From positions 1 through 64,000 of IMG/VR virus record IMGVR_UViG_3300035053_000267: 64,000 bases of DNA. One strand, given 5' to 3'. Below, one piece after another: positions 7,536 to 51,479 of this stretch. The notes beneath the pieces are model-generated. The model was not told the origin of the DNA. It did not search any database and saw nothing but the letters and a program-made list of their open reading frames with translations. Positions within the stretch are counted from its first letter, which is position 1; every line of letters begins with the position of its first letter. A program made the position numbers and the translations under genes. The stretch is from a virus.

Positions 7536-7850
7536 TTAGTCAGCAATAAAGGCGTCACTTATTTCAGGGTCCTGCAAAATAGCTCCGGACAGCGAATAAG
7601 TGTCATCAGACGAACCGGCAACCAGAGCCGCAAGGCTCTTAGAAGCGGACTTAACAATGTCATTAGGAGCCTGAGCCGCAGACTTAACCTGGCCACCTTC
7701 CTGAAGCGAACTGAGAATAGCTGCAATCTTAAGCAGTTCTTCAGCATCTTCACGGGTGTTTACAGGTATACCGGCGGCTGCGCATTTATTCAAAAACACA
7801 GGAGCATACGCTTTATTAAACAAAACATTCTGAATCTTTTCTTCGTTCAT
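7536..7850 (-). CDS. Hypothetical K-x-A-motif protein
   Basis: 104 aa, RBS, two VKSA motifs. Confidence 0.65.
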   Translation of the reverse strand: MNEEKIQNVLFNKAYAPVFLNKCAAAGIPVNTREDAEELLKIAAILSSLQEGGQVKSAAQAPNDIVKSASKSLAALVAGSSDDTYSLSGAILQDPEISDAFIAD

Positions 7851-12551: not shown

Positions 12552-12740
12552 TTAATAGGCTGCTATTTTATACCTCAAACGGATAAGACTATATAGAGTG
12601 AAAACACTTACTACCAGCCCCATCATGATTAAACGCATGAATCTTTTTTCAGTAAACTGTGTATATTTTTTAAACAACACGTCATAAACCACATCAGCAA
12701 ACATATACGCTATCAGCATGCTTCCAAAGAACTCAATCAT
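12552..12740 (-). CDS. Small membrane protein
   Basis: ATG 12740 with GAGG RBS; two hydrophobic segments. Confidence 0.5.
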   Translation of the reverse strand: MIEFFGSMLIAYMFADVVYDVLFKKYTQFTEKRFMRLIMMGLVVSVFTLYSLIRLRYKIAAY

Positions 12741-12756
12741 AATTACCTCTCTCTCT

Positions 12757-13383
12757 CTACTGTGTTTTGAGCTTAGAAAGCAACTTCCGCGCTTCTTTTT
12801 TATACCTACTGGAAGCATAACACATAATGATTCGCAGATCTGCATTAGTGGGTCTCTGCTTAAGTAATTGCTGCCACGCTTTTTCTTTCCACTTATTTGG
12901 AGCAAAGCATACAATATATTGCAAATTTTCATCAGTAGGCTTTTGCTCAAGTAATTGCTGCCACGCTTTTTCTTGCCACTTGTCGGGGGCATAGCACACA
13001 ATATATTGCAGATCTTCATTAGTGGGGCTCTGCTCAAGTAACTTATGCCACGCTTTTTCTGCCCACTTACTGGGAGCGAAGCGCACAATAAGTCGCAGAT
13101 CATTATTTTGAAAATATCCTTTGCTCCACATTTTACCAAAGTTGGCATCAAAATCTTTTATAATATTTTTAAGCTCCTCTGGTAAATCATCTGCCCAAAA
13201 GTCACGTCTCTCATACTCAATGCCACCTTTAACGCCCCAGAACACTCTTATTGCTCCATGACCTAAGTAGTCGTTGTCACGACACCCTGAGAATTTTTCT
13301 CTGCCCTGGGCAGAGAAGACCTCTTTATCTGTTAAGTAAAAAAGTTTGTTATCTTTTTCAATCCAACTTATGAAATCGCACAT
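12757..13383 (-). CDS. 29-aa helical-repeat protein, paralog 1 (4 repeats)
   Basis: Shared N-domain MCDFISW...GHGAIR plus PTNxDLxYIVCYAPDKWxEKAWQQLLxQK repeats. Confidence 0.8.
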   Translation of the reverse strand: MCDFISWIEKDNKLFYLTDKEVFSAQGREKFSGCRDNDYLGHGAIRVFWGVKGGIEYERRDFWADDLPEELKNIIKDFDANFGKMWSKGYFQNNDLRLIVRFAPSKWAEKAWHKLLEQSPTNEDLQYIVCYAPDKWQEKAWQQLLEQKPTDENLQYIVCFAPNKWKEKAWQQLLKQRPTNADLRIIMCYASSRYKKEARKLLSKLKTQ

Positions 13384-13404
13384 GTTTACTCCTTAGTTGT
13401 CATC

Positions 13405-14373
13405 TTAGAGCTTAGAAAGCAACTTCTGCGCTTTTTCTCTAAACTTACAGGAAGTGTAGCGCACAATAAATCGCAGATCTTCATTAGTGGGCTTCTGCTT
13501 GAGTAATTGTTGCCATGCTTTTTCTTGCCACTCACCATGGGCATAGCACACAATATATTGCAAATATTCATTAGTGGGTCCCTGCATAAGCAGCTGCTGC
13601 CATGCTTTTTCTTTCCACTTACGGGGAGCATAGCACACAATATATTGCAGAGTATTATCAATGGGCTTCTGCTTGAGTAATTGTTGCCATGCTTTTTCTT
13701 GCCACTTGTCGGGGGCATGGCACACAATATATGGCAGGTCTATATTAATAGGCTTCTGCTTGAGTAATTGTTGCCATGCTTTTTCTGCCCACTTATCGGG
13801 AGCGCACAGTATGATATCTCGCAGATCGTTATTAGTGGGTCCCTGCGTAAGCAGCTGCTGCCATGCTTTTTCTGCCCACTTATCAGGAGCGTAGCACACA
13901 ATAAGTTGCAGATCCTCCTTAGTGGGTTTCTGTTTAAGTAATCGTTGCCATGCTTTTTCCGCCCATTCGTCAGCATAAACATAGTGCACAATATATCGCA
14001 AATCATCATTAGTAGGCTTTTGCTCAAACAATTGCTGCCATGCTTTTTCTGCCCACTTACTGGGAGCGAAACGCACAATACGCCGCAGATCATCATTTTG
14101 AAAATATCCTTTGCTCCACATTTTACCAAAGTTTGCATCAAAATCTTTTATAAGATTTTTTAACTCCTTTGGCAACTCCTCTGTCCAAAAGTCACGTCTC
14201 TCATATTCAGTGCCACCCTTAAACCCCCAGAACACTCTTATTGCTCCATGACCCAGAACATCATTGTCCTTGCACCCTGAGAGTCTTTCTCTGCCCTGAG
14301 AGGAAAAGACTTCTTTATCCGTCAGATAAAATAATTTATTGTCTTTTTTGATCCAACTTATGAAATCGCACAT
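13405..14373 (-). CDS. 29-aa helical-repeat protein, paralog 2 (8 repeats)
   Basis: Same architecture as paralog 1; AGGAGG RBS. Confidence 0.8.
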   Translation of the reverse strand: MCDFISWIKKDNKLFYLTDKEVFSSQGRERLSGCKDNDVLGHGAIRVFWGFKGGTEYERRDFWTEELPKELKNLIKDFDANFGKMWSKGYFQNDDLRRIVRFAPSKWAEKAWQQLFEQKPTNDDLRYIVHYVYADEWAEKAWQRLLKQKPTKEDLQLIVCYAPDKWAEKAWQQLLTQGPTNNDLRDIILCAPDKWAEKAWQQLLKQKPINIDLPYIVCHAPDKWQEKAWQQLLKQKPIDNTLQYIVCYAPRKWKEKAWQQLLMQGPTNEYLQYIVCYAHGEWQEKAWQQLLKQKPTNEDLRFIVRYTSCKFREKAQKLLSKL

Positions 14374-14542
14374 TTATTCCTCCTTAATTGTTTGAAATAC
14401 AGCCGACAGGGAGTTGCACCCTGCCGGCTGTAGTTAATTAAATCAGATCACCTCTGACGGTCGCCGTGTTAACGCAGGTCGGCTCTGCGGTAAGGATTGA
14501 TTAAATGTCTTACAAGTAAGTATGCCTGTTTTTTTGCGCTAT

Positions 14543-16439: not shown

Positions 16440-17888
16440 TCATGCATAGTTCTGAACAACGCACATTAAATCAACAAAATCATCGTTAATACGGCTGCAT
16501 GCCGCTATTTTATACTTGGCATACGCACGGGCCATGAGCTCAGCTGTATTGTCCCCGGCAGAGGAAATTTTACGGATTCTGATGTCCGGCTTCCTGTTTT
16601 TGATGACCATAATAGACATCCTGCGCACTGCCGGCTCATTATCAAGAGAACAGCCCTCTACACATTCGTTGATAATGTCGTCTATACTGGGAGGAATAAG
16701 CTTGTTTCCAAACTCAAGAGAATCGGCAGGTGTCGGAATGTCGTTCTCCATTACTTTGCTGAATATACCCGGCATAAGTTGTTCCGCGCGGGCAAGAGAA
16801 GGACCGAACTTATCAATATCATTACCGGATATAAGCCTCATGAAATCCCTCAACGACAAAACTATCTTACGGTCAGCAAACCCGCCTAGAATATCCTCTA
16901 CAGGACAGGTGGAATTGACCAGTTTCTGCATTATTTTATCATGTATAGGCGTGTACACATCGTTATCAAACGAGAGCTTCAGCTTAAGTATAGGAGACTC
17001 AGGATCTGATATGCCCTCTATCTCTTTTTCAAGCTCTGAAAGTTTCCTTAATACAGATAGTTTACTGCTCTTATTCAATCCGTACACGTCATTTCCGGAT
17101 ATATCCAGAACAGATGCCAGTTCAGCCGCAGAAACCACGTTATCCAATGCTGCCACCTTCTGCAATCCAAAAGCAATACGGTCGGCCGGTGTTCCTACTT
17201 TGGATATATCAAAAAAAGTCATATGATCGTTAATAGCGTTAATAGAGTGTCCGTCTTTTGTAATAGAGGCCATATGATTTTTAAGATGATCACAGTATTC
17301 CGACTGTTTAACTGCTTTATTGCCGCATATGGAGCATATATCATATGGTACAGTACACGACATGGACCAGGCGACAGGCTCTCCAGATGCCATTTTATGC
17401 AGCTCTTCTCCCCATTCGCTGTCTGGGAGTTTGACTATAAGCTCTACACGTTCAGCTGCATCATGAAATGCTGATTTAACTACATCACCGTATATTTTGT
17501 CGCCTTTATTGTGTCTGTGGTCTTTATAGACGTGTGCATCAGTGACAAAAGTACTGTGTGTGTCCTTAAGACCTTTTTTAACATTATAGTTTTTTATGTC
17601 TTTTCCATCTGGAATAGAAACGTCACAGGCTGTTTTATAAAAAATATCACCATTGCGGTTGCCTGGAAGATTAGGCGCAGCCCCCATAGCAATTAAATGA
17701 ACAAAGGAGTGCCCTTTTTCAGGTTTGATGTCCGACAGGTCGCCGAAAACCCTGGTACCGGCTTTTTTCCTTATCCACGAACTGTCAACACCTTTTAAGC
17801 ACACATCAACAAGCGACGACAGAGGGTCCGAATGGTCGTACCTTGAGGGCAGCACTGTTTTAATAAATGTATTGTTACTCATAACCAC
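16440..17888 (-). CDS. Prohead/capsid maturation protease with inserted Zn finger
   Basis: NRNGDIF, VYKDH, WSMSC, CSICGN...CDHL, FFDISKVGTPADRIA. Confidence 0.7.
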   Translation of the reverse strand: MVMSNNTFIKTVLPSRYDHSDPLSSLVDVCLKGVDSSWIRKKAGTRVFGDLSDIKPEKGHSFVHLIAMGAAPNLPGNRNGDIFYKTACDVSIPDGKDIKNYNVKKGLKDTHSTFVTDAHVYKDHRHNKGDKIYGDVVKSAFHDAAERVELIVKLPDSEWGEELHKMASGEPVAWSMSCTVPYDICSICGNKAVKQSEYCDHLKNHMASITKDGHSINAINDHMTFFDISKVGTPADRIAFGLQKVAALDNVVSAAELASVLDISGNDVYGLNKSSKLSVLRKLSELEKEIEGISDPESPILKLKLSFDNDVYTPIHDKIMQKLVNSTCPVEDILGGFADRKIVLSLRDFMRLISGNDIDKFGPSLARAEQLMPGIFSKVMENDIPTPADSLEFGNKLIPPSIDDIINECVEGCSLDNEPAVRRMSIMVIKNRKPDIRIRKISSAGDNTAELMARAYAKYKIAACSRINDDFVDLMCVVQNYA

Positions 17889-20359
17889 TCTTCCTGTTCC
17901 CGGGCTTTGATAGCAAGGTCTCTAGCAAATTCTTTATATGTATCGGTATATTTCGGCCAAAGCAGCTCTACAGGTGGGTCAGCTGGATCATTGATATTGA
18001 CACTGGACGGATCATCAACCTTAATTAAATTTCCAATAGACTCAAAGAAACCAGGAGTATATGGAGCTGGTTCGTACTCCATTATAGGCTCAGGACCAAA
18101 ACCAGTCATCCGTCTGATCATATCCCATATAGTGGCACTACTCCCCTCACTGCGCTGATCTAGATCCAATCTTTTAGGAACCATTTTAATATTTCTTGGA
18201 TTTACTGTTTTGCGCGGCTGTGTAACCTCGTCGACATCGGTATGTACACTCACTGACGGCGACTCTTCAATGTCGTGGTTTTTGTCCTGAACAGCCAGAT
18301 GCTTATACAAATGGCCGCCGGCAGCACCGGCTGCGGAACCCATTAGAGCTTTTCTAACCGCCTCCATGAGTCTGTCCTTCCCTATCTTATCTGAAGACAT
18401 ATACCCATAGGTTCCAGCCCCTAAGCTGCCTATAGACGCTCCTGTAAGATAAGGAAGAACCTGTTCAGACATGAGCAGATCCTTAAATGTAACTGCCCGA
18501 CCCTTCAGATCTTCGGCCAGTTCTTCCAGTTTTTCTGTTACTTTGTTAGAGGATTTAATAAAACTTTCAGCCAGATTAGAGGCATCTTTACTTATGCCGA
18601 GATGTTCATTGGCAGACCCTTCTTTGCCCAGACCGGTCCATTCCATGAAATCCAGTATGTCCCTGTCAGTAGGCGCTCTATCAGATGAAGAAGCAGTACT
18701 GCTGCCACGATGCCATGTACCTGTGTTGCCGCTTAACGGAACATCAGTATCTGGAGCGGGGAGACCTAAAGGCTCACCATAAGTACCATAAACAGGAAGA
18801 CTTTTTGTATTGAGATCAGGCCTTACGAATATAGTCGACACAGGCCCAAAAGGTCCTTCTTTTGTCTTGTCGTCTGATTTGCCACCTGATTCATCTTCTG
18901 GTTTATCCTTTGGTGGTTTTTCTGATTTAGGAATATAATTATTGACGTCTATCTTCATAGGCTCTTTTTTAGGAATATAATTATTGACGTCTATCTTCAT
19001 AGGCTCTTTTTTGTCGTATACCTCTTTACGAACTTTAGCCTTCTCAATAATATTCCTTTCCTTGTCGCGTTCGGTCTTGGCTACATCGGAAGCCATACTG
19101 CCTACGCTGGAAAGATCATACATATCCAGACCACCGGATTCCACTGCTTTCCTGATAACAGATTTAACAACCATAGGAGCCTTTAAAAGATCAGGATACG
19201 ATTCCATCAGCTTATTAAAATAACGGACAACTTCTTCAGGAGGAGCAGCAGACAGAACCTCATCGTTACGCAGGAAATCATTTAAAAGCATAGTTGCTCT
19301 AATGTTGTTTTCAGTATCCCGTACCCCCGAAGTAACAGATGAGGCGAATACATCCTCTATGTCCTCACCAGATAGACTATATTTATCTGTCAAACCCTGG
19401 CCGATACTGCTTACCGCATTCAAAATTGGAAGGTTTTTATACACCCCTCCTACTATACTGGAAGGAATAAAAGCTTTTTTTTTAAGAAGTTTTTTGCTTT
19501 TCATATCAAAAACTTCCTCAAAATTACCAGCATCATTAGAGGCTACCGTGTCTACAGACGATATTTTACAGTATTGACGTGCAAGCTCAACAATACCTGC
19601 CAGCTTCTTAATACCCTCAGTCGGAGTATCTATCTCGTATTCAAAGGCTTCTGCAAGTTTCTCTATACCAACAGATTTGAACTTATCCGCTGCTTCCCAT
19701 GCCCGGCCCACTTCGCCGAGTTTAGACTCTTCATACACCTCATTAAGCAGAGGAAAAGCATTATTAGCTGTTTTACGCATGACGTAATCTGCGCACTTTG
19801 AAAAGCTCTCAGCATCAACAGGACGAAAATAGTCTACAGCGTCCTGTATCGCGTTAACAAGCTTATAGTGTATTTCAGCCTTTTTATCCTTTATTATGCC
19901 GGCCGCAGCCTTGATATGCTCAGTCTCTCTGAGAGCCTGGAACCAGTCGGCATCGGGAGTGTCTGTAAATGACTTAGCAGATAGATCCCCTTTAATAGTC
20001 TCAGGAGCCGGTTCGTCATAATATATTGTATCATGAGTGTCTGAAAACAGAGCAGACTTATGCGTCTCAACAGAAGGAGTCTTGACGGTAGAAGGATACA
20101 TAATAGAAAAAACAGACTCAGTATCCGCTAAATCCACTGATTCAGCTTTCTTTATGGCGGGAGCCGTTTTAAGATGATTAGCAGTCCTGGAAACGTTAAA
20201 GGCCTCTACAGCCCGTTTAGTCATTTCAGGAACCAGTTTATAGACTGTAGCGTATTTAGCAACCGCCTCCGAAGGATCAGTACCACTGCCTGCTTCCCTC
20301 AAAGCGGCCTGCGCTGCCTTGAATATACGAGTCTCGTCAGAATAGCTTAATAAATCCAT
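17879..20359 (-). CDS. Large K-x-A-rich putative internal head protein
   Basis: About 826 aa from MDLLSY; many K-x-A motifs; Gly-zipper segment; 14-aa tandem duplication. Confidence 0.6.
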   Translation of the reverse strand: MDLLSYSDETRIFKAAQAALREAGSGTDPSEAVAKYATVYKLVPEMTKRAVEAFNVSRTANHLKTAPAIKKAESVDLADTESVFSIMYPSTVKTPSVETHKSALFSDTHDTIYYDEPAPETIKGDLSAKSFTDTPDADWFQALRETEHIKAAAGIIKDKKAEIHYKLVNAIQDAVDYFRPVDAESFSKCADYVMRKTANNAFPLLNEVYEESKLGEVGRAWEAADKFKSVGIEKLAEAFEYEIDTPTEGIKKLAGIVELARQYCKISSVDTVASNDAGNFEEVFDMKSKKLLKKKAFIPSSIVGGVYKNLPILNAVSSIGQGLTDKYSLSGEDIEDVFASSVTSGVRDTENNIRATMLLNDFLRNDEVLSAAPPEEVVRYFNKLMESYPDLLKAPMVVKSVIRKAVESGGLDMYDLSSVGSMASDVAKTERDKERNIIEKAKVRKEVYDKKEPMKIDVNNYIPKKEPMKIDVNNYIPKSEKPPKDKPEDESGGKSDDKTKEGPFGPVSTIFVRPDLNTKSLPVYGTYGEPLGLPAPDTDVPLSGNTGTWHRGSSTASSSDRAPTDRDILDFMEWTGLGKEGSANEHLGISKDASNLAESFIKSSNKVTEKLEELAEDLKGRAVTFKDLLMSEQVLPYLTGASIGSLGAGTYGYMSSDKIGKDRLMEAVRKALMGSAAGAAGGHLYKHLAVQDKNHDIEESPSVSVHTDVDEVTQPRKTVNPRNIKMVPKRLDLDQRSEGSSATIWDMIRRMTGFGPEPIMEYEPAPYTPGFFESIGNLIKVDDPSSVNINDPADPPVELLWPKYTDTYKEFARDLAIKAREQEEWL

Positions 20360-20372
20360 AATCAACCTGTTT

Positions 20373-21197
20373 TTATAAAGAAACCTGTTTCTCAACTTTA
20401 CCTAGTTTACCAGTTTTATCTAACTGTGCCAATCCCAAAGATATACCATCCACCAGACTCTTAACCTGTTCATCCACACTTCCGGAAGCTGCACCCTCTT
20501 TATTACGCATTTTATCCGTAAATACAGCGTACTCTTCCACTATATCATGATGCGTATACTTAGACGGCAACCGGGTAAAGGCAGAAAGAAGAGCCTGACG
20601 GGTAATTTGACCTTCAAACAGCTCATATATTGTCTCTTTAACCTTTGTAGACAGAGGTGCATTACTTATAAACTCCTCTAAAACCGCTGTATCACAATAG
20701 TACGCTACAGTTTTCCACAGGAAATTATAGTCACCTCTGCTGGTATCATCACCGGCAACAGGCATTAGAACCTCCTGAATAACATAGAGAGGGTGTTTAA
20801 GCCTGTCACGTATATCATAGAACACATCCTCATAGAGAGACACACCGGCAACATCGCATCCGGTCTTTTCCGCTATTGTCTTTTTTGGAGCCCCGGCTAT
20901 TATATAGGCTTCAACGGCCCATTTCATATAGTTATCCGCAGTAAACAGAGTGTATGCCTGGTGCATGCTCGGATATTTGGTAAAAATAAAGGAACTGTCC
21001 ATATGCTTGTAGTTCCCTTGTTCCACCTTGGCCTTATACTCTTTTAAAAAGCGTATAAACTTAAAAGCCATTCCTGTACTCCGGTCGAGACCTCTGGAAT
21101 TAACATAGCCGTTAGCGGCATTTTTAGCAAGAACCCATCTCCAGTCAGGAGCTCTTAAAGGATTTTTATCTCGTCTGCGTATTCTTTCTCTTGCCAT
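20373..21197 (-). CDS. Hypothetical protein
   Basis: 274-aa ORF, start coupled to upstream stop. Confidence 0.7.
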   Translation of the reverse strand: MARERIRRRDKNPLRAPDWRWVLAKNAANGYVNSRGLDRSTGMAFKFIRFLKEYKAKVEQGNYKHMDSSFIFTKYPSMHQAYTLFTADNYMKWAVEAYIIAGAPKKTIAEKTGCDVAGVSLYEDVFYDIRDRLKHPLYVIQEVLMPVAGDDTSRGDYNFLWKTVAYYCDTAVLEEFISNAPLSTKVKETIYELFEGQITRQALLSAFTRLPSKYTHHDIVEEYAVFTDKMRNKEGAASGSVDEQVKSLVDGISLGLAQLDKTGKLGKVEKQVSL

Positions 21198-23638
21198 TAA
21201 AGATCTGCCTCCAGCCCTGATGAACCTCCAAGAATGTCAAAATCATTGTCTATTTCCTTCTTTTTAAGAAACAGTACAAGATTTCCAAGATTTGAAAAAC
21301 CGTCTTTAATAGAGGTTTCAAGCTCTGTAAGTTCCTCTTCACCATACGTTTCCGCAAATTTATCTATATGCCAATAAAACATAATCAGTATACGGCCCAG
21401 CCTGTCCAGGCCTACCATGAGATCCGATATATATTTGTTTATGGCGCTTGATATATCCATGGTCTTAATAAGACTGGCCATGATTCCGGTATCCATAACT
21501 TCTTTTTCACCGGTCTGAGCCAGCTGGAATATAGTCTGTACGTCCTTATCGTCCAACACGTTATAGTCGCTTGGGGTAGCCTTCATCTGGCCTGGAACCA
21601 TCATAGTCTTACTGGATGGACCCACGCCCATAACCCCGGGAGGGACCCCTACCATGGAATCAGCTGCCGACACAGGAATATTCGTGGAAGGTGCTATAGG
21701 AATACCTGCATCAGCGTATGGGACAGCAGTTTTAACAAACACGGAATGAAATTTATTGGAATCGGCCTCATTAAGTATACTTAGAGCCGCATTTTTACTG
21801 AGTCCGTAAGATGTCATAAGCTCTGAGACCATACTTTTACGACCGTATATGTCAGGACTGTCGGGAAACCTGTACTGCCTGTAGTCGGCCATGACAGTAA
21901 CAGGAACCAGACCTGCTGATTTTATCAGATGAGCCTCGAAACAGTCTATATCGCCCGGATACCAGTCTCTGGCACCTTCACAGCTTAGTACTTCATCTTT
22001 AGAAGGCTTGGCAATTTTGTATATTTCTACATCATCAGGGATAAAACATCCGGCGGAGTTAACTACAAATGACGCCGTCTTTCCCGGTATAAACACATGT
22101 TGATTAAGATATTTTAAAGACTCTGGAAGCTTCTCTGTATTAATATGAAGACGCTCGTGGGGAGGACTGTCGCTTACAGGATAAGAAACATTTAACCCGG
22201 ATCTTAAAACAGCTACAATATTGCCCTTCTTTTTTCCTATATAGTTAAACGGTAAACTGAATTTGTTTCCTTTCTTAAAAAAATAAACGTTTCCCGTAAC
22301 CATATTCTCTTTTTTAACTTTTGTAAATACCTTGCTCAGAGACAGATCCGGATAATCGTGTGTTGCAAGAACTGAACCCTGATCCACTATCATATCCTTT
22401 TTTGTATTAACATCTATAATACAAAGATTTTCAGTGGCACCGCTGTGAAAATCGAATCCACCATTTATAATAAAACAGTCGTGAAAAACCCCATCATCGC
22501 CAAACACTGAATAAAATCCGGTGTCTGTAGGAGTGGCCACTGCCGAGGATCCGTTTCTTGGAAGAACTGTAGACACATTAGAAGATGCCCGTTTGTCTAT
22601 AAAAGTGAAACCCTCTCTGACCAGATCCTCTCTGTGCTCTCTGGTAAGATCCCTGTTTACCAGATCGGCATTACTGTCTGTAACAACCGTTATCCTGCTG
22701 TTCGTGTCGTCTTTTGAGGAAACTTTTCTTAAAGCCGGATTCAAAGGAGCCACAGTAATCATGCTCAATCTGTTTCTCAGATCGTTGGCATTGTTTATTC
22801 CACGTGATTTGAGCAAGTCTATGACATCCCCTACAGGACGGGCTCCCCTGTAGAACCCCCTGGCAGCTATATTGCGTACATAATAGTTAAACAAAGCCCT
22901 GTCTATGTCCTTTTCTTTAAGCTCGTCATCAGATGGCGGCCGCAGTTCTTTCTTATTTTCAGACGATACATCGTCATAAACCAAATCATCGGCCTGTATG
23001 TGCTCTTTCATCAAATCAGCAAACTTTTTGTTCTCACGTATGGTGTTTGCGACTATTTTAAGAGGAAATTCGCCGTATTCCCTGACAACAGAGGCCAATT
23101 TAGTTCTTTCTGCGGATTTTTTATATATTTCAGAATTGGGAGACGCATAAAATAATGGCAGACAAGGTCTTATGTCAAATTTACTGCCTATCAGGCATTT
23201 CCCGTATACATTATCTGTACCGTCATATTCACAAAACGAGTTTTTTGAGAACGGACTGTCAAAATACTCATTAAAAGACGGCTCATATTTGGCTAGGTCG
23301 CTCATAGTGGTTTCGTCTGGGCCTCCCATGACCGAAGGTTTGCGGGATAAAATATAGTTTACCCAATTCTCCTCCAGGGGAACTACTGTGTTCTTGCTTT
23401 TAATATAGATACTGTCACAGCCTTTAAGCTCTCCCCTGATAAAGAAGGACACTACATACAGCCAGGTTTTTTCAATCTTTATACCAAATACCCCCGCTGC
23501 TTTAGTGTCATCTTCATTTTTATCTAACAACTGAAAACCAATAAGATAATCAAGAAGTTTAGGGGCTCTGTCCCGCAAATGTACATAGGCCAGATTAGAG
23601 AAAGTGGTCTCGAATTGAGCTTCATCAGCACTAGGCAT
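21197..23638 (-). CDS. Large putative virion structural protein
   Basis: 813 aa, first gene of operon, K-x-A motifs. Confidence 0.6.
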   Translation of the reverse strand: MPSADEAQFETTFSNLAYVHLRDRAPKLLDYLIGFQLLDKNEDDTKAAGVFGIKIEKTWLYVVSFFIRGELKGCDSIYIKSKNTVVPLEENWVNYILSRKPSVMGGPDETTMSDLAKYEPSFNEYFDSPFSKNSFCEYDGTDNVYGKCLIGSKFDIRPCLPLFYASPNSEIYKKSAERTKLASVVREYGEFPLKIVANTIRENKKFADLMKEHIQADDLVYDDVSSENKKELRPPSDDELKEKDIDRALFNYYVRNIAARGFYRGARPVGDVIDLLKSRGINNANDLRNRLSMITVAPLNPALRKVSSKDDTNSRITVVTDSNADLVNRDLTREHREDLVREGFTFIDKRASSNVSTVLPRNGSSAVATPTDTGFYSVFGDDGVFHDCFIINGGFDFHSGATENLCIIDVNTKKDMIVDQGSVLATHDYPDLSLSKVFTKVKKENMVTGNVYFFKKGNKFSLPFNYIGKKKGNIVAVLRSGLNVSYPVSDSPPHERLHINTEKLPESLKYLNQHVFIPGKTASFVVNSAGCFIPDDVEIYKIAKPSKDEVLSCEGARDWYPGDIDCFEAHLIKSAGLVPVTVMADYRQYRFPDSPDIYGRKSMVSELMTSYGLSKNAALSILNEADSNKFHSVFVKTAVPYADAGIPIAPSTNIPVSAADSMVGVPPGVMGVGPSSKTMMVPGQMKATPSDYNVLDDKDVQTIFQLAQTGEKEVMDTGIMASLIKTMDISSAINKYISDLMVGLDRLGRILIMFYWHIDKFAETYGEEELTELETSIKDGFSNLGNLVLFLKKKEIDNDFDILGGSSGLEADL

Positions 23639-27234: not shown

Positions 27235-27565
27235 TACTGTTCTCCTTTTGTTCTTTCTTCTTATCGTTCGCAGTTTATACATGTACCGCACTGTTGGGCA
27301 GATAATGCCCGCGACACTCATCTTGCTGCGGAGCGCATAGCCTGCCATCAGTTACCATGAGCAACACGTCTCGACATGTTAATTTCAATCGCACACGGTA
27401 TGCGGTTGGATGCCAAACATACCAGGCCGCTGATTCATTGCGGTACTGCCGCAGGTCTGAGCCGGTTGACCGCATTGCGGACAGTGCCCGAGACTGACGG
27501 GCAAAGCGCTGGGCTGTTGCCTTTATTCGCTTTCTTTGCTCACTCACTCCTAAACCTCACTTTCA

Positions 27566-27694
27566 GAGACAAAGGGACGAGTCATGCCGCCCGGCATCGG
27601 TCAATCGTGTGCGCACACGCAGTGGCAAAGCTGCGAACGGCGTCCCGTTGCCCTTGTCCGGCAGGACTCGAACCTGCGACCCGATCCCTGTCTC
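27566..27694 (-). ncRNA. Candidate structured ncRNA with tRNA-like T-arm
   Basis: Closing stem GAGACA..GGGA/TCCCTGTCTC, four internal hairpins, GCAGG-TTCGAGT-CCTGC. Confidence 0.4.
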
Positions 27695-27712
27695 AAAGTT
27701 GTCAATATACGC

Positions 27713-27771
27713 CTCCAACAAGGCGCAGCAAGCGACTCCGCTTCGCTACGCGCTTGAGCTAGTTGTTCGCG
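27713..27771 (+). repeat. attC-like site
   Basis: CTCCAAC...GTTCGCG, 59 bp; near-identical to 30532 and 34333. Confidence 0.8.
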
Positions 27772-27965
27772 ATAAAGTTCTTTCCTTCAATACCGCAGTT
27801 CAGGCTTTTTGGCTTGATCGGGCGTTTGCGTTGCGTTTCACGACGTGCCAAAAACGGAGACGCAAAATGACATAGCTCGTCCCGCCAGTGCAGGCAGTCT
27901 TCGCATTTTGGATAACAAGTCAATTCAGGGGACATGTGCCCCGCTGTGCGTTTCGTGTTACTCAT
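27759..27965 (-). CDS. Cassette ORF, Cys-rich
   Basis: Starts inside site 27910; ends ANN* inside site 27713. Confidence 0.5.
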   Translation of the reverse strand: MSNTKRTAGHMSPELTCYPKCEDCLHWRDELCHFASPFLARRETQRKRPIKPKSLNCGIEGKNFIANN

Positions 27966-28010
27966 GATCGTTCTCCCTGGGGCACATGCCCCTGATTTCC
28001 GGCATTGGGC
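27910..28010 (+). repeat. attC-like site (degenerate R')
   Basis: GGATAAC...TCAGGGGACATGTGCCCC/GGGGCACATGCCCCTGA...ATTGGGC. Confidence 0.65.
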
Positions 28011-28192
28011 GGCACACGACAGCCACACCACGGGCAATACCGTATTGCTGGCAAACTGATGGCAACGCCATTCAGGGCCGCATGCTTACATGATGCGTGG
28101 AGTTTGCCCCAATTAGGAACAAACTTGCCACATTTACAGCGTCCAACCATGCGCCCAACAAGGCGCTGGACCGCTACAAAAAATCCGCTCAT
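27962..28192 (-). CDS. Cassette ORF, Zn-ribbon-like
   Basis: RBS and ATG inside site 28153; YCPWCG. Confidence 0.55.
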   Translation of the reverse strand: MSGFFVAVQRLVGRMVGRCKCGKFVPNWGKLHASCKHAALNGVAISLPAIRYCPWCGCRVPPNAGNQGHVPQGERS

Positions 28193-28231
28193 ACTTCGCT
28201 CCTTTTTTGATGGTCAGCTTGTGCGTTCGGC
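28153..28231 (+). repeat. attC-like site
   Basis: GCCCAAC AAGGC GCTGGACC...GGTCAGC TTGTGC GTTCGGC. Confidence 0.85.
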
Positions 28232-28322
28232 ATCAGGCACCCCGGCATGGGAACGGGCATCGGGGAATCGAACCCCAAGCAGCCAGCCATACGCCCGTCA
28301 GGTTTGCCTACCCGTGCCTGAT
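28232..28322 (-). ncRNA. Non-coding cassette with tRNA-like minihelix
   Basis: Terminal IR ATCAGGCAC/GTGCCTGAT; ACGGGCGT/ATGCCCGT stem; GGGG-TTCGATT-CCCC. Confidence 0.45.
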
Positions 28323-28384
28323 TCCGAACAAATCGTTTCACAAACTACCTCGCTTCGCTCGGAGTGTGAACTCCGGCGTTGGGG
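28323..28384 (+). repeat. attC-like site
   Basis: TCCGAAC AAATC GTTTCACA...TGTGAAC TCCGGC GTTGGGG. Confidence 0.85.
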
Positions 28385-28536
28385 CGACCAAGAATCTCGC
28401 GCACAAGGCGCATCCACTCGCCCTTGATTTCGTTCTGAATCTTCTCGTCGATCTGTTCCCACTCTTGCCGCAACCCGCGCCTGTCGGTGAAGTCGGTCAC
28501 TATCGCATCAACAATCAGTTCTGCCGTCTTGTCCAT
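28345..28536 (-). CDS. Cassette ORF, hypothetical
   Basis: MDKTAEL...DFTDRRGLRQEWEQID; GGAGGA RBS. Confidence 0.6.
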   Translation of the reverse strand: MDKTAELIVDAIVTDFTDRRGLRQEWEQIDEKIQNEIKGEWMRLVREILGRPNAGVHTPSEAR

Positions 28537-28553
28537 CCTGTCCTCCATTTTTG

Positions 28554-28613
28554 CCCCAACAAAGGGCTGCAATCTACCTCGCTTCGCTCGGAGCTTGAGC
28601 CCCGGCGTTGAAC
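28554..28613 (+). repeat. attC-like site
   Basis: CCCCAAC AAAGG GCTGCAAT...CTTGAGC CCCGGC GTTGAAC; same family as 31263 and 34798. Confidence 0.85.
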
Positions 28614-28643
28614 TTGACATCCGCCAGCCTCCTGTGGTATTCT
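28614..28643 (+). promoter_or_regulatory. Cassette-internal sigma70-like promoter
   Basis: TTGACA-18-TATTCT with TG extension. Confidence 0.55.
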
Positions 28644-28677
28644 TCGCTCGTGTTTGACCTTTAATAGGAGTCTCGTT

Positions 28678-29163
28678 ATGACACCATATGAACTTGGAAT
28701 TAAAGTTGCACAACAACGCAACGTGTCCGGACACCTGAAGCAGGCGTACGCCCAGGGGCTTGCGGAGGTGTTTGAGAAGAGGGCCTTTTTGGGACTCGGA
28801 CGCCCAAAACAGCGTCCCCAAGCGCCTACTTACACGCCGCCGGTGATGCCCGATTTTCGCCTGGATCCGAACTTTGAACAGAAGGTTCTAGCCGCCATGC
28901 GTAAGGAATGGGGCGAAAGTTTCAACCCAGGAAACTGGACTAACGTCGACGTCGCCGACGGTACTGACGAATTCGATACTATGGAATCCGCCTTGGCTCT
29001 GCAGGAGGCGCTCGGCCTCCCGGTAAGCCTGGACAACATACCGGACGAATTGATGCCGATTGGCGACGCCGCAGCAGACTGGCGCCCGCTCCTCTCTGAA
29101 TTGCAACGTGCTCTAAAAGCCCAACAAGGTGCTCCAGCTTACTCCGCTTCGCTCCGAAGCTGA
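28678..29163 (+). CDS. K-x-A-leader protein with acyl-carrier-protein-like C-domain
   Basis: AGGAG RBS 28666-70; GTDEFDTMESALALQEALG...IPDE versus ACP GADSLDTVELVMALEEEF..EIPDE. Confidence 0.6.
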   Translation: MTPYELGIKVAQQRNVSGHLKQAYAQGLAEVFEKRAFLGLGRPKQRPQAPTYTPPVMPDFRLDPNFEQKVLAAMRKEWGESFNPGNWTNVDVADGTDEFDTMESALALQEALGLPVSLDNIPDELMPIGDAAADWRPLLSELQRALKAQQGAPAYSASLRS

Positions 29164-29178
29164 GCTTGATCGTTGAGT
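29119..29178 (+). repeat. attC-like site (canonical architecture)
   Basis: GCCCAAC AAGGT GCTCCAGC...GCTGAGC TTGATC GTTGAGT. Confidence 0.9.
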
Positions 29179-29504
29179 TTCTTAGAAGATAAAACTCCGC
29201 AAAGCAGCACAGCTTTATCATCTTCGTTGCTGCATCCTTCTTCAATGAGACCGGCCGCTGTTTCAAGCCCGCTGTTGTACGCATGGCATTCTGCACAGGC
29301 GTATATTCGCAATCCGCACCTATCTCCTTTCCAATACGCTTTTTCATTTCCGCAGTCGCATGGTATATTCATCTCATTACTTTCCTCGTTAAAACCCAAC
29401 AAGGTGTCGGTGCGTATATCCGAAAGGGCACGTTCTGCATCCATATCCGGGTCCATGCTCATTAACTCAGTAATCAATTTCTTGACCGTCAGCCTGGCCG
29501 TCAT
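29139..29504 (-). CDS. Cassette ORF, hypothetical
   Basis: Ends LNDQAQLRSEAE* inside site 29119. Confidence 0.55.
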   Translation of the reverse strand: MTARLTVKKLITELMSMDPDMDAERALSDIRTDTLLGFNEESNEMNIPCDCGNEKAYWKGDRCGLRIYACAECHAYNSGLETAAGLIEEGCSNEDDKAVLLCGVLSSKKLNDQAQLRSEAE

Positions 29505-29683
29505 TTTGGCTCTCCTGTTTTATTGTTCATTAACGCTTGTTCTGCCGCCTTGACGTGCTCGCAACATTGTCCGGTGTTTGCTTCACAGCGACATTCAAGC
29601 AGCCCGCGTAACGCCGCTCGCAATACCGAACAGTCGCATTGAGTGGGTACTTGCGCCCCGCTCGCGTTTTCTACATCACTCAT
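29501..29683 (-). CDS. Small hypothetical protein
   Basis: AGGAG RBS; stop overlaps next start. Confidence 0.5.
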   Translation of the reverse strand: MSDVENASGAQVPTQCDCSVLRAALRGLLECRCEANTGQCCEHVKAAEQALMNNKTGEPK

Positions 29684-29995
29684 GGTTTACTCCTTAGGGC
29701 AACTGCCCTTGATTTGTGGCGCTCACAACATCCAAGATGCGCCCGATCACGGGATGGCTTTTAATTTTATACGGTTTTTAAAAGAATATAAAGCCATTGA
29801 AGCACATTAACCACCAGCCACACAGCGCCAGCGATAACTGCTACGTTAATAAGAAATGTGAGCGCGATCATAATTATACGCACGGCTATAAATTGTTTGG
29901 AATTTACCATTTTATCCCTTTCACTTCATTATTCATTTAAAAAATAATCCGCGTGACGATGTCTACTTCTTCTTAACTGCGCCCATATCTGAACC

Positions 29996-30268
29996 TCACA
30001 CTCGGCGTTGGTAATCTACCGTCAGGTCTTCCACGGTGTAGTCACCAATGCGATCAAACACCCCAATCACGCCACCACACTGGATGCCGATGTTTACGCA
30101 CAAGTCCGCGTCTACGCACTCTTCCAGCACGTCCTTCTGCTGCCTGCGCGTGAGGCGGGCTAATCGACGTATCGAAGGAGGCCCCTTCTCTGGGTCAAAC
30201 TGCTCGCGCCGAATGATGCCAACAAGACGATCGAGCATACTGTCAATTACGCTTAGCTCCACTGTCAT
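29996..30268 (-). CDS. Hypothetical protein
   Basis: GGAGGTG RBS. Confidence 0.55.
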   Translation of the reverse strand: MTVELSVIDSMLDRLVGIIRREQFDPEKGPPSIRRLARLTRRQQKDVLEECVDADLCVNIGIQCGGVIGVFDRIGDYTVEDLTVDYQRRV

Positions 30269-30511
30269 TCACTCACCTCCATAGCTGGGGCGGCATGCTT
30301 CCCGCAGCACTTCGTGTCCTTTGTCCGTCATACGGAAATACTCATCCGGCACGAACGACTTGCAGCCCGCCGACACCATCAGCCCAGCCTCGATCAGCTT
30401 TTGCATGTCGGGGCTGTCCCCGCAATACAGCCCACCAGCGGCCCGGTGTGCCGTGTGATCCAGTATCGCCAGTTGTTCCTTATTCAATCGCTTCCAATTC
30501 ATTTCACTCAT
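30269..30511 (-). CDS. Small winged-helix-like hypothetical protein
   Basis: MSEMNW...LIEAGLM...YFRMTDKGHEVL; AGGAG RBS. Confidence 0.55.
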   Translation of the reverse strand: MSEMNWKRLNKEQLAILDHTAHRAAGGLYCGDSPDMQKLIEAGLMVSAGCKSFVPDEYFRMTDKGHEVLREACRPSYGGE

Positions 30512-32535: not shown

Positions 32536-32708
32536 GTATAATCAGGGTTGTGCCAGACCGAAAACCCGTTCCGCTGCAAAACATCTGCGGCCACGCTGGT
32601 CTGACAGAAGCCGTCCGACCCGTAATCCGTGTCCAGTTCCTTCGCCTTGCGAATGATGTCATTCGCGCTGGCCGGTTCGTCATCAATCATGTACTTTTTT
32701 TCGTTCAT
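32490..32708 (-). CDS. Cassette ORF
   Basis: AGGAG RBS; ends PNAGSDDQNEGSEE*. Confidence 0.6.
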   Translation of the reverse strand: MNEKKYMIDDEPASANDIIRKAKELDTDYGSDGFCQTSVAADVLQRNGFSVWHNPDYTPNAGSDDQNEGSEE

Positions 32709-32734
32709 CGCTTTTCTCCTTTATGTTACGGAAC

Positions 32735-32793
32735 GCCCAACAAGGCGCTCCAGCTTACTCCGCTTCGCTCCGAAGTTGAGCTAGTTATTGAGT
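32735..32793 (+). repeat. attC-like site
   Basis: Near-identical to 29119; R' ATTGAGT. Confidence 0.8.
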
Positions 32794-33302
32794 TTCCACG
32801 CAATAACACGAGTTTTGCTTTCGTCAAGTTCGCTGTTATTGGAGAAGCAAAACCGAGGATCGGTCGGTTCCTCTAGTGTCATCTTATCCTCGGTTATTCG
32901 ATCTGTGCGATAATGCAGAACCTTGCAAATCAAAGGTGCGCTGAATGGTGGGTGACTATCAGCGTGCCAGACATTAAAAGAAACCCAATGATCGCTTGGA
33001 ACAGACGCGGAAACCGCGCCGCTAAAGTGTGCGTTCGGCATACGTTCCCTTGCGGCATCCCACGCCTTTCGGACCATCGGATCGGCGTGACTTCCAATCC
33101 AATGTCCACCTTTCGTCCCGACCTCAACGACGTACCAGTGCCACCAATCGTATTCCGACTTCCAGCGCAGAACGCCGCCAGCCTGTTTCGTTGTCTCAAT
33201 CTCATCCGCCCACGCCCACGCAGACAGATGCCGAACAAGACGTTTAAATTTATCTTTCACTCGCTTCGCTCCTTTCAGAAAACTCAATTTAGGCGTTGGC
33301 AT
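32781..33302 (-). CDS. Two-cassette fusion ORF
   Basis: Reads in frame through site 32983; start uncertain. Confidence 0.5.
   Translation of the reverse strand: MPTPKLSFLKGAKRVKDKFKRLVRHLSAWAWADEIETTKQAGGVLRWKSEYDWWHWYVVEVGTKGGHWIGSHADPMVRKAWDAARERMPNAHFSGAVSASVPSDHWVSFNVWHADSHPPFSAPLICKVLHYRTDRITEDKMTLEEPTDPRFCFSNNSELDESKTRVIAWKLNN
32983..33039 (+). repeat. attC-like site (degenerate, intragenic)
   Basis: ACCCAAT...CGCGGAAACCGCG...GTTCGGC. Confidence 0.6.
33230..33301 (+). repeat. attC-like site
   Basis: GCCGAAC...CGTTTAAATT/AATTTAGGCG...GTTGGCA. Confidence 0.7.
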
Positions 33303-37123: not shown

Positions 37124-37396
37124 TCAATGACGAGCGACACATTGTATTGCTTCATCTCGTTCCTTATTATTTATAAGATTTATCAGCTCCTCTGGTAAAT
37201 CATCTGTCCAGAAGTCGTTTTCTTCACACTCAAAACCATATTTAAGACCCCAAAATTCTCTTATTGCTCCATGGCCCAGAACATCGTTGTCACGCCACCC
37301 TGAGAGTTTTTCTCTGCCATGGGCAGAGAATACCTCTTTATCAGTTAAGTAAAATAGTTTGTTATCTTTTTCAATCCAGCTTATAAAATTGCACAT
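37124..37396 (-). pseudogene. Truncated copy of the helical-repeat protein N-domain
   Basis: Near-identical to the paralogs for about 70 aa; no repeats. Confidence 0.6.
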
Positions 37397-37462
37397 GTTT
37401 ACTCCTTAATTGTTTGAAATGCAGCCGACAGGATGCAGCTCCCTGTCGGCTGTACGCTGTTA

Positions 37463-38347
37463 TTATGTTTCAAGCTTAGAAAGCAACTTTTGTGCTTCTT
37501 TTTTATACTTGCTGGGAGCGCGGCACACAATATATTGCAAATCCTCCTCAATGGGTTTCTGCTTAAGTAATTGTTGCCACGCTTCTTCTCTCCACTTATC
37601 GGGAGCGCGGCACACGGCATATCGCAGATCCTCCCTAGTGTGTTTCTGCTTGAGTAATTGTTGCCATGCTTCTTCTCTCCACTTGTCGGGAGCATAACAC
37701 ACAATATATTGCAAATCTGCATTAGTAGGCTTTTGCTCAAGTAATCGTTGCCATGCTTTTTCTTTCCACTTACAGAGAACGTGGCACACAGCATATCGCA
37801 GATCTTCATTAGTGGGGCTCTGCTCAAGTAGCTGTTTCCATGCCTTTTCTGCCCGCTTACTGGGAGCGAAGCGCATGATATATCGCAGATCCATATTAGT
37901 GGGCCTCTGTTTGAGTAATTGCTGCCACGCTTCTTCTGCCCGTTTGTCAGTAGAACGACATATAATCAGTCGCAGATCGTTATTAGTGGGTCCCTGCGCA
38001 AGCAGCTGCTGCCATGCTTTTTCTGCCCACTTACTGGGAGCGAAACGCACAATACGTCGCAGATCATCATTTTGAGAATGGCCGTTTCTCCACATTTTAC
38101 CAAAGTTTGCATCAAAATCTTTTATGAGATTCTTTAACTCCTTTGGCAACTCCTCTGCCCAAAAGTCACGTCTCTCATACTCAGTGCCACCTTTAACGCC
38201 CCAGAATTCTCTTATTGCTCCGTGGCCCAGAACATCGTTGTCACGGCATCCTGAGAGTTTTTCTCTGCCATGGGCAGAGAATACCTCTTTATCCGTCAGA
38301 TAAAATAATTTATTGTCCTTTTCAATCCAACTAATAAAATTACACAT
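37463..38347 (-). CDS. 29-aa helical-repeat protein, paralog 3 (7 repeats)
   Basis: Same architecture as 12757 and 13405. Confidence 0.8.
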   Translation of the reverse strand: MCNFISWIEKDNKLFYLTDKEVFSAHGREKLSGCRDNDVLGHGAIREFWGVKGGTEYERRDFWAEELPKELKNLIKDFDANFGKMWRNGHSQNDDLRRIVRFAPSKWAEKAWQQLLAQGPTNNDLRLIICRSTDKRAEEAWQQLLKQRPTNMDLRYIMRFAPSKRAEKAWKQLLEQSPTNEDLRYAVCHVLCKWKEKAWQRLLEQKPTNADLQYIVCYAPDKWREEAWQQLLKQKHTREDLRYAVCRAPDKWREEAWQQLLKQKPIEEDLQYIVCRAPSKYKKEAQKLLSKLET

Positions 38348-38363
38348 TTATTCCTCCTTAGTT

Positions 38364-38645
38364 TTATCTTTCAAAAATCAGAGAATCAGCACTTACAGTG
38401 TGCCACCCACACATATCAGCGGCCATTCTCCTTACTTCTCGATTAATTCTATCTTGTGCGTCGCTATAAGTTAGATAGTCAACCCGAGGCAGTGAAAATA
38501 ACTTTTTAGGAAAAGGCACCCACTTTAACTTACGCCACCATAAGTACCCACACCATTCACGATGCTCAATGCGAAATATTATTCCATTAGTAATGACGCG
38601 AAACTCTTTAGCGAGCTCTTTAGCTATCTCATCTATTTCTGGCAT
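38364..38645 (-). CDS. Hypothetical protein
   Basis: AGGAG RBS. Confidence 0.6.
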   Translation of the reverse strand: MPEIDEIAKELAKEFRVITNGIIFRIEHREWCGYLWWRKLKWVPFPKKLFSLPRVDYLTYSDAQDRINREVRRMAADMCGWHTVSADSLIFER

Positions 38646-49821: not shown

Positions 49822-49895
49822 TGGGCCCGGCAGGATTTGAACCTGCGACCAGAGAATTATGAGTTCCCTGCTCTAACCAGCTGAGCTACAGGCCC
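49822..49895 (-). tRNA. tRNA with CAT anticodon (Ile2 or Met)
   Basis: GGGCCTGTAGCTCAGCTGGTTAGAGC, loop CTCATAA, GTTCAAATC; no encoded CCA. Confidence 0.9.
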
Positions 49896-50807: not shown

Positions 50808-51479
50808 TTAAATACGAGGCCCGTACTCAGGCTGAGGAGCGCCCAGATTTGACCTCCGTCTCCCAACGGGACCAACAGGAGCCGTACGAACCCCATACTC
50901 ACGCTGCGGGTTAATCAAGTTTGCCGCCCGACTCCCAATAGTCTCGAAAAGAGGATCATTAAGATAATTATGCCAAAAGCTCGTAGGCAAACCGGGCTCG
51001 TCCGACCTCCAATCTATTCTTTTAAACAGATTAGCAGCAGAATACGGATTAAGCTTTGGATCGTTCACAATCTGTGAGAACGCAGATACATCATTGTTAT
51101 CTTTTTTAACTGGAGTGTCATCTTTTTTAACTGGAGTGCCATACTCATTAAAACCATAACCAGCTATAGCTCCAAGAGCGGCCCCAGGCCCAACTCCTTC
51201 ACTAAATCTACCCTTAAGCAGTCCCTGATTAAACAGACCTCCGCCTACACCCCCTATGCCGGCACCAACAGTCGTAGAGAGTAGCTTTCTTTGAACTTCA
51301 GGATCACTAAAATACTCTTTAATAGACTGAACTATACTTTTAGTACTCTCTTTAATGCCATCTGCATTCTCAGCTACACCAGCAGCTTTAAACATATCTA
51401 CAATATCATTAGAAGCGGATTTAGACAGTCCAGCTTCTTTACAGTACCCTATTAATCCTTGTTCAAATGGTGTGCTCAT
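50808..51479 (-). CDS. Gly-zipper K-x-A putative virion protein
   Basis: Paralogous to 51486..51971 (FEQG..YCKEAGL, YFSDPE). Confidence 0.65.
   Translation of the reverse strand: MSTPFEQGLIGYCKEAGLSKSASNDIVDMFKAAGVAENADGIKESTKSIVQSIKEYFSDPEVQRKLLSTTVGAGIGGVGGGLFNQGLLKGRFSEGVGPGAALGAIAGYGFNEYGTPVKKDDTPVKKDNNDVSAFSQIVNDPKLNPYSAANLFKRIDWRSDEPGLPTSFWHNYLNDPLFETIGSRAANLINPQREYGVRTAPVGPVGRRRSNLGAPQPEYGPRI

Follow-up and report, generated by a model that had tools for sequence, protein, structure and literature searches.

A promoter-bearing integron cassette in an uncultured phage encodes a conserved leader joined to a putative serine-less acyl carrier protein-type domain

In polymorphic toxin and effector systems, a conserved N-terminal domain for trafficking precedes C-terminal domains that vary. 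The internal proteins of phage T4 (IPI, IPII, IPIII and the polymorphic IP locus) are diverse payloads provided with a conserved capsid-targeting sequence, the CTS (PMC3012670; Repoila et al. 1994 cited there), and among them IPI* is an injected inhibitor of host defence. Integron gene cassettes with internal promoters are known, toxin–antitoxin cassettes being one example, as are clusters of attC sites without an integrase (CALINs) in phages (PMC9892861; PMC4889954), and the acyl carrier protein (ACP) fold is found without phosphopantetheine in ATPTT11, a subunit of the Tetrahymena ATP synthase (PDB 6YNX chain q; PMC7583250). Here we compare with these systems a gene cassette at positions 28608–29172 of a 64,000-nucleotide window, which comprises bases 1–64000 of the 111,747-bp IMG/VR virus record IMGVR_UViG_3300035053_000267 (completeness 57%, CheckV estimate). 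The cassette is carried by a large uncultured phage, in an array that is otherwise mirror-oriented and has no integrase, and its protein, P0001, joins a leader found in environmental proteins to an acidic domain resembling ACPs. Our preferred reading, to which we assign a probability of roughly one half, is that of a cassette-borne two-module protein made up of a leader handle and a serine-less ACP-type binding domain. What is new is the leader family, together with the leader-fused, cassette-borne form of the domain; promoter-bearing cassettes, leader-plus-payload families and serine-less ACP-fold proteins were known already. The features of the cassette and its borders are as follows.

28549–28616, plus strand: upstream attC (nhmmer with a model of eight array repeats, E 7e-20; repeat families D4/D5/D7/D8)
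28608–29172, plus strand: gene cassette of 565 bp, bounded by the crossover points, between G and TT, of two R' boxes
28614–28643, plus strand: predicted sigma-70-type promoter, with -35 TTGACA (28614–28619), an 18-nucleotide spacer and -10 TATTCT (28638–28643)
28644–28677, plus strand: 5' untranslated region (UTR), with the ribosome-binding site (RBS) AGGAG at 28666–28670; about 80% identical to both copies at L003, a metagenome locus introduced below
28678–29163, plus strand: coding sequence of P0001, 161 amino acids and TGA; relatives begin at the same Met
28678–28785, plus strand: leader, residues 1–36, two predicted helices, isoelectric point (pI) 9.4
28786–28851, plus strand: proline-rich basic linker, residues 37–58 (from composition; modelled as coil, predicted local distance difference test (pLDDT) below 50)
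28852–29118, plus strand: putative ACP-like acidic helical domain, residues 59–147, pI 4.05 (phmmer against PDB, ESM model, AlphaFold2 (AF2) model, BLASTP)
28966–28977, plus strand: D97-E98-F99-D100 in place of the D-S-L-D phosphopantetheine motif (alignments; Glu98 is encoded at 28969–28971)
29113–29181, plus strand: downstream attC, the cassette's own (nhmmer, E 1.8e-18)
29119–29160, plus strand: the C-terminal 14 residues (AQQGAPAYSASLRS), encoded within the downstream attC, in its R''/L'' half

The segment is a genuine integron gene cassette in textbook orientation: attC sites lie at both borders, with cores conforming to R'' RYYYAAC and R' GTTRRRY, and the open reading frame (ORF) lies 5' of its own attC. 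Crossover within the R' box of the upstream site (GTTGAAC, 28607–28613) sets the cassette start at 28608, and the cores of the downstream site are GCCCAAC (R'') and GTTGAGT (R', 29172–29178). Both sites belong to a series of attC-type repeats of 60–70 nucleotides with RYYYAAC...GTTRRRY ends, all in plus orientation, that runs from about 27.7 to 36.6 kb and has a GC content of 54% against 42.6% elsewhere in the window; for the cassette itself the figure is 55.4%, against 42.6% in the phage backbone. The 111.7-kb record, itself 57% complete, contains no match to the tyrosine recombinase family PF00589, and an array without an integrase agrees with a CALIN better than with a complete integron. 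Single attC sites folded alone have unremarkable energies (z about -1). The cassette thus shares with CALINs and promoter-bearing cassettes the single ORF followed by attC, the core sequences and the lack of a tyrosine recombinase in the record. It differs from them in that its promoter adjoins R' and in that the ORF, which occupies 86% of the cassette, enters the downstream attC; the TGA (29161–29163) lies inside that site, and the last 14 residues are therefore attC-encoded.

A further difference is that this is the lone textbook-oriented gene of a mirror-oriented array. An earlier note on this DNA, made from the letters alone, had called it the only sense-oriented cassette, sense meaning a gene followed by its attC, and the composition of the plus-strand ORFs of at least 90 amino acids agrees. 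Among these, only 28678–29163 is protein-like, its combined Arg, Ser, Pro and Cys fraction (0.20) compared with 0.16–0.25 for the minus-strand genes and 0.28–0.46 for the remaining plus-strand ORFs, which are shadow frames rich in these four residues; one borderline ORF, 32550–32876, is overlapped by a better minus-strand gene. The longest antisense ORF within the cassette has 72 amino acids.

The same note had placed TTGACA-18-TATTCT directly after R', followed by AGGAG and an ATG at 28678, and all of these are present. The promoter fits the consensus at 10 of 12 positions, its -10 hexamer is preceded by TG at 28635–28636 (an extended -10), and it is the best promoter-like site in 27500–30500, a region with six such sites against 2.0 ± 1.5 in shuffled sequence; seven bases separate AGGAG from the ATG. 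That the promoter is the cassette's own was borne out by the DNA of relatives, which was read at two metagenome loci, L002 (2.5 kb) and L003 (1.7 kb), both of which hold leader genes in tandem, L003 with one truncated copy in addition. In L003, which is independent of the phage record, homology begins upstream of the gene, at a GTTGGGC box adjoining TTGACA; the -35 hexamer is kept, the -10 element at the same position is the consensus TATAAT with TG, and a UTR of roughly 35 nucleotides with AGGAG follows. That independent samples have the promoter in common is the strongest argument at hand for its function. Leader DNA is conserved in L002 as well as L003, and over the 36 leader codons the differences at first, second and third positions number, for example, 5/5/15 (window versus L002a) and 6/6/15, with synonymous codons at V16, G18, L20, K21 and A23. 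The third-position excess indicates that the leader is selected as protein, and not only as DNA. As far as sequence can tell, the cassette gene is therefore real, its leader recurring elsewhere with differences that fall mostly in third codon positions. With its own promoter and RBS, it could be transcribed in the direction opposite to the minus-strand genes around it.

The N-terminus proved to be a discrete leader. Two helices are predicted in it, at residues 3–13 and 18–37 (pLDDT about 66), within an AF2 model of the full-length protein that is poor overall (pLDDT 44). It is common to about 30 environmental proteins at 60–85% identity, with the consensus M-T-x-Y-E-L-G-I-x-A-A-Q-x-x-N-V-P-G-H-L-K-Q-A-Y-A-x-G-F-A-G-A-x-E-K-R-A; residues K21 and A23 never vary, and beyond residue 36 (E33-K34-R-A36) conservation drops off abruptly. 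A word-indexed search returned two proteins that share only residues 1–38 (78–79% identity), HMMER run exhaustively over 1.84 billion representatives returned 18 matches, 15 of them covering only query residues 1–84 at most, and a leader-only profile from DNA references (A2) found 31 proteins among 5.8 billion clusters. Two matches to the C-terminal half, P0007 and P0020, were judged spurious, being long, internally repetitive proteins matched through 8 and 3 summed stretches at 29–31% identity; P0020 repeats a ..RALQKSQGAP.. element resembling the attC-coded junction ..RALKAQQGAP.. of the query, a resemblance that we attribute to chance or low complexity. The leader has no match in Pfam or PHROGs, and a search of the ESM Atlas with the leader alone returned nothing.

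Behind this one leader stand at least 24 unrelated payloads. BLASTP groups the payloads of the 31 members into 25 clusters, and in the cluster that includes P0001 the attC-coded tail is probably all that connects the members. The payload of P0004 is a LysM protein with matches to PHROGs of endolysins and transglycosylases, HExxH motifs occur in six family proteins and glycine-zipper segments in about fifteen; none of the relatives, all of which come from metagenome assemblies (ENA, JGI, Logan), has been functionally named. Near-identical tails (...QGAP(A/T)YS...) end P0025, P0018 and P0035, at least part of the family therefore being cassette-borne, with the same attC class and orientation; this tail also matches a second attC of the phage, at 32657–32776. 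The leader family can thus be described as small and polymorphic, with at least some of its members carried on cassettes. Second leaders, internal or truncated, stand in frame in P0005, P0006 and P0033, which suggests recombination between leader copies.

Several further observations concern the relatives' DNA. Neither L002 nor L003 contains a full attC of the array's class. At 1–130 of L003, at the contig end and upstream of GTTGGGC-TTGACA, lie two direct copies of roughly 58 nucleotides, which recall the direct-repeat integrase-binding sites of the attI region. At L002 2245–2296, and in the tails of P0006, P0012 and P0022, the stub CCCAACAAAAGAATGCAGGCTATAAT alone separates successive leader genes; it encodes a recurrent tail, ..QQKNAGY..., and in appearance it is the R''/L'' start of an attC running directly into the -10 and RBS that serve the following leader gene.

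We infer from this architecture that the leader is a targeting or docking handle that takes all payloads to a single shared destination or partner. The nature of that destination is where the two biological alternatives part from our preferred reading. According to the first, which we consider unlikely, the leader would act like the T4 CTS, as a propeptide for capsid targeting: it would load its payload into the prohead and be cut off after E-K-R-A by the prohead protease, and the serine-less ACP mimic would then be injected along with the DNA as an anti-defence decoy; capsid packaging and a decoy or anti-defence role had also been the inference of the earlier note. The parallel with T4 is close in outline, since the T4 internal proteins likewise carry diverse payloads that share only the conserved CTS (PMC3012670), an arrangement that suggests modular payload exchange, and the present family shows the corresponding conserved leader in its 31 members and 25 payload clusters. 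Family conservation stops exactly at E33-K34-R-A36, where cleavage would fall, and the kinds of payload found in the family, a muralytic enzyme, metalloprotease-like proteins and membrane-inserting segments, are characteristic of ejection proteins. The T4 CTS, for its part, has about 10 residues and demonstrated cleavage and packaging, while the cassette leader has 36 and is known here from its sequence; the T4 modules also differ from the present ones in that the latter are bounded by attC sites.

The K-x-A motif bears on the same alternative. The three K-x-A tripeptides that the note had seen in the N-terminus (K9-V-A11, K21-Q-A23 and K34-R-A36) are present, against 0.41 expected from leader shuffles (P = 0.0014), and the ORF ranks sixth of 115 phage ORFs in K-x-A excess. 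The five that rank above it (21200–23638, 17882–20395, 51489–51971, 52926–53324 and 7539–7850; z 2.8–3.7) fall in the 7.5–23.6 and 50.8–53.3 kb blocks, and the first 33 residues of two ORFs, 50811–51479 and 51489–51971, also hold three K-x-A, with glycine zippers behind them, an arrangement that recurs in many members of the leader family. The resemblance that the note had claimed to the head proteins of this phage is thus a weak one to the K-x-A-enriched proteins, in the shared motif and the rank. It does not extend to the profiles: hhalign comparison of the leader profile with 50811–51479 and 51489–51971 is not significant (P 0.23 and 0.077), and a leader hidden Markov model (HMM) searched against all phage ORFs found the target alone, the next match, an internal GHLKQA, having a chance-level E of 0.33, so that there is no second leader copy in the phage. 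K-x-A is moreover a low-information motif; IMG/VR and INPHARED contain no other family member; the putative head proteins themselves match nothing in Pfam and only one PHROG, a weak protease match of 16440–17888 (E 8e-4); and a consensus host-type sigma-70 promoter on the opposite strand would be unusual for a late virion gene. Genome-wide, 207 K-x-A tripeptides are observed against 168 expected from shuffles, and the position of the strongest excess, in the five ORFs just named, fits the recurring K-x-A motif noted earlier in the putative head module. The ORFs 50811–51479 and 51489–51971, on the minus strand, are adjacent and paralog-like, each with an N-terminal K-x-A segment of about 33 residues, glycine zippers and a shared ..RIDW.. 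C-terminal motif, and have no Pfam, PHROG or GenBank phage match. An extended form of the same idea, in which the leader is a virion-loading (ejection-protein) signal and integron recombination supplies swappable injected payloads, we regard as very unlikely.

The promoter that tells against a late virion gene is equally a point in favour of a second alternative, that of a passenger cassette from a bacterial integron pool. Here the leader family would be a polymorphic effector or bacteriocin-like set, one member of which was captured by the phage; its own promoter would work in bacteria, and a role in infection may be absent. In its textbook orientation the cassette departs from the remainder of the phage array, and it has a strong host-type promoter that reaches full consensus in L003. 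The relatives come solely from metagenome contigs classified as non-viral, one of which is GC-rich throughout (L002, 55–65%; L003 has 41–54%). Their payloads (LysM peptidoglycan hydrolase, HExxH proteins, glycine-zipper membrane segments) resemble polymorphic toxin sets, in which one N-terminal module likewise precedes many unrelated C-terminal modules, here including a peptidoglycan hydrolase and modules that look metallopeptidase-like and membrane-active, and the tandem leader genes and truncated remnants (L002, L003, P0005, P0006, P0033), also a feature shared with those systems, look like displaced or orphan modules. Set against this, the family occurs in none of the 185,579 GTDB species genomes and is absent from PLSDB; the neighbours of the leader genes in L002 and L003 have no informative match, and no secretion-system or immunity gene lies beside the genes at these two short loci; an ACP-like domain is not a typical toxin; and the leader, read by eye, has neither signal-peptide nor double-glycine features. 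It also differs from polymorphic toxins in its length, only 36 residues, and no known trafficking domain was identified. On balance a bacterial passenger appears rather doubtful to us.

Whichever destination applies, the distribution of relatives does not support the note's suggestion that the cassette pool is phage-specific. The roughly 30 leader relatives are all metagenomic, and the suggestion is unsupported because none of them was found in IMG/VR or among the phages of INPHARED; PLSDB and GTDB contain none either, and those read at the DNA level lie in replicons of differing GC. Scans with single proteins turned up no related phages. The attC class of the array is present without the leader in three other IMG/VR contigs of 43–68% GC. 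These carry one or two such sites each, at 7710–7776 of L005 (GC 68%), 815–880 of L006 (54%) and 7009–7053 of L007 (43%).

The second module of the preferred reading, residues 59–147, probably has an ACP-type fold, judging from comparisons that are weak singly yet independent and in agreement on the register. When searched with phmmer against 177,635 distinct PDB sequences, the three best matches are all of ACP type, namely ATPTT11, the mitochondrial SDAP1 and a bacterial ACP, and all three align on G-T-D-E-F-D-T-M-E...L-Q-E-A-L-G...I-P-D-E; for ATPTT11 (E 0.026–0.047) the alignment also spans helix I. Both HMMER and BLASTP place G95-T-D-E-F-D100 on the G-x-D-S-L-D of ACPs. In a pairwise BLASTP comparison with E. 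coli AcpP (from NC_000913; E 0.001), G39-T-D-E-F-D, in domain numbering, falls on G34-A-D-S36-L-D and IPDE on IPDE. The structural models agree with this. The ESM Atlas model (pLDDT 0.61) has PP-binding clusters as its nearest neighbours, with template-modelling (TM) scores of 0.58–0.59 over residues 59–156 and 82–90 residues aligned, and when the AF2 single-sequence model of the domain (pLDDT 57) was compared with 48,161 PDB representatives by VIA-align, about 40 of the top 50 matches were carrier proteins, among them complex-I ACP, AcpM and ATPTT11, with a best Z of 5.4. Two low-confidence models thus point, with moderate strength only, to the four-helix fold of carrier proteins.

In four alignments Glu98 stands at the position of the carrier serine, as the note had proposed in describing an ACP-like C-domain whose phosphopantetheine Ser is replaced by Glu, and the record contains no phosphopantetheinyl transferase gene. 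Because of this replacement the domain cannot be expected to carry acyl groups. The acidic residues of helix II, D97, D100, E103 and E110, align with D35, D38, E41 and E48 of AcpP, so that four of six are kept. In length, in helix order, in the G-x-D-x-[LF]-D-T-x-E start of an acidic helix II and in the IPDE turn the domain agrees with the ACPs (AcpP, PF00550) and with ATPTT11, which also reads D-E-F-D. It differs from ACPs in lacking a significant PF00550 match, in having Glu for the serine and a five-residue insertion before IPDE, in being fused behind a 36-residue leader and a proline-rich linker, and in its location on an integron cassette in a phage.

A number of results weigh against our interpretation. 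The domain has no match in Pfam (PF00550 included), NCBIfam or PHROGs, even at E up to 10, nor was there one in a six-frame search of the genome with PF00550; hhalign against an AcpP profile gives a probability of 12% (P 0.0023), this profile being narrow, with homologues only at 87–100% identity; and Foldseek against PDB finds nothing significant, its best row still being an ACP at E 4.2. The C-terminal domain is without a homologue in any protein collection searched, and tblastn found no match in 50,697 phage records. Confidence in both models is low, and Z values under 8 may stem from no more than a generic bundle of helices. Of the fold check proposed in the note, therefore, the retrieval of carrier proteins ahead of other folds by the ESM and AF2 models stood, and support at significant Foldseek or hhalign scores did not materialize. 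Beyond the domain, the leader has no linked gene for secretion, for the capsid or for a partner, and a sigma-70 promoter may be irrelevant in a phage with an RNA polymerase of its own.

These same negatives supply the case for regarding the ACP resemblance as fortuitous, the domain then being an unrelated small helical or partly disordered one with a chance D-E-F-D...IPDE match. There is no significant profile match, there are no homologues in which to examine conservation, and the low-confidence models reach Z values no higher than 5.4, a range common for helical proteins. Chance would, however, have to account for the convergence of the PDB sequence ranking, the ESM model and the AF2 model (the latter in a search other than Foldseek) on one family and one register, and for a similarity that goes beyond helix II, taking in helix I (with its pattern F-E-Q-K-V...W-G) as well as the IPDE turn. 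Carrier proteins are estimated to make up well under 1% of PDB, so that three top matches, and about 40 of 50, are unlikely by chance, and we think a fortuitous resemblance improbable.

Under the two-module interpretation, the cassette would bring a sigma-70-type promoter and RBS of its own and be transcribed counter to its minus-strand neighbours. The first module, the basic two-helix leader (residues 1–36), would direct any payload to one common destination or partner, while the leader DNA, together with the conserved promoter and UTR, could serve as a homology handle for the exchange of payloads. After the proline-rich linker, the second module would be an acidic four-helix domain of ACP type, with the recognition helix mostly kept and the IPDE turn. 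With Glu98 for the serine, it would bind proteins instead of carrying acyl groups, and its role may thus be that of an adaptor or, towards a protein that docks ACP, of a decoy.

Two observations on the surroundings of the array may be added. Just left of its first strong attC (27706), a 27-nucleotide stretch at 27658–27684 shares 89% identity with the 3' terminal region of the tRNA gene at 49822–49895 (repeat family D19), and may be what remains of a tRNA gene at a former insertion boundary of the GC-rich array. The region with the array is also bracketed by two blocks, 12704–14432 and 37170–38364 (repeat families D1–D3, D9 and D16), which are 80–88% identical direct repeats about 23 kb apart with internal 87-bp tandem repeats, and which look like a duplicated repeat-domain gene on the minus strand (13405–14373 and 37463–38347).

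The leader family described here was previously unannotated, and it is compact: one 36-residue tag, with its promoter and UTR, stands on dozens of unrelated domains and travels, at least in part, on integron cassettes. The destination of this tag, be it capsid, envelope, export route or partner, would once found give a cellular address to about 25 orphan protein types at once, and the leader could yield a portable targeting tag. The domain in P0001 would be a remote, fused and cassette-borne look-alike of ACPs that is not phosphopantetheinylatable. For the array itself, the cassette indicates that lack of an integrase and a mirror orientation do not keep a phage array from holding a cassette that is textbook-oriented, self-expressed and common to environmental pools. 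If the virion-loading reading were true, the locus would in effect be the counterpart of the T4 internal-protein locus in a form driven by attC sites, with an injected payload library of lysins, proteases and membrane-channel pieces and, in this phage, a non-modifiable ACP decoy.

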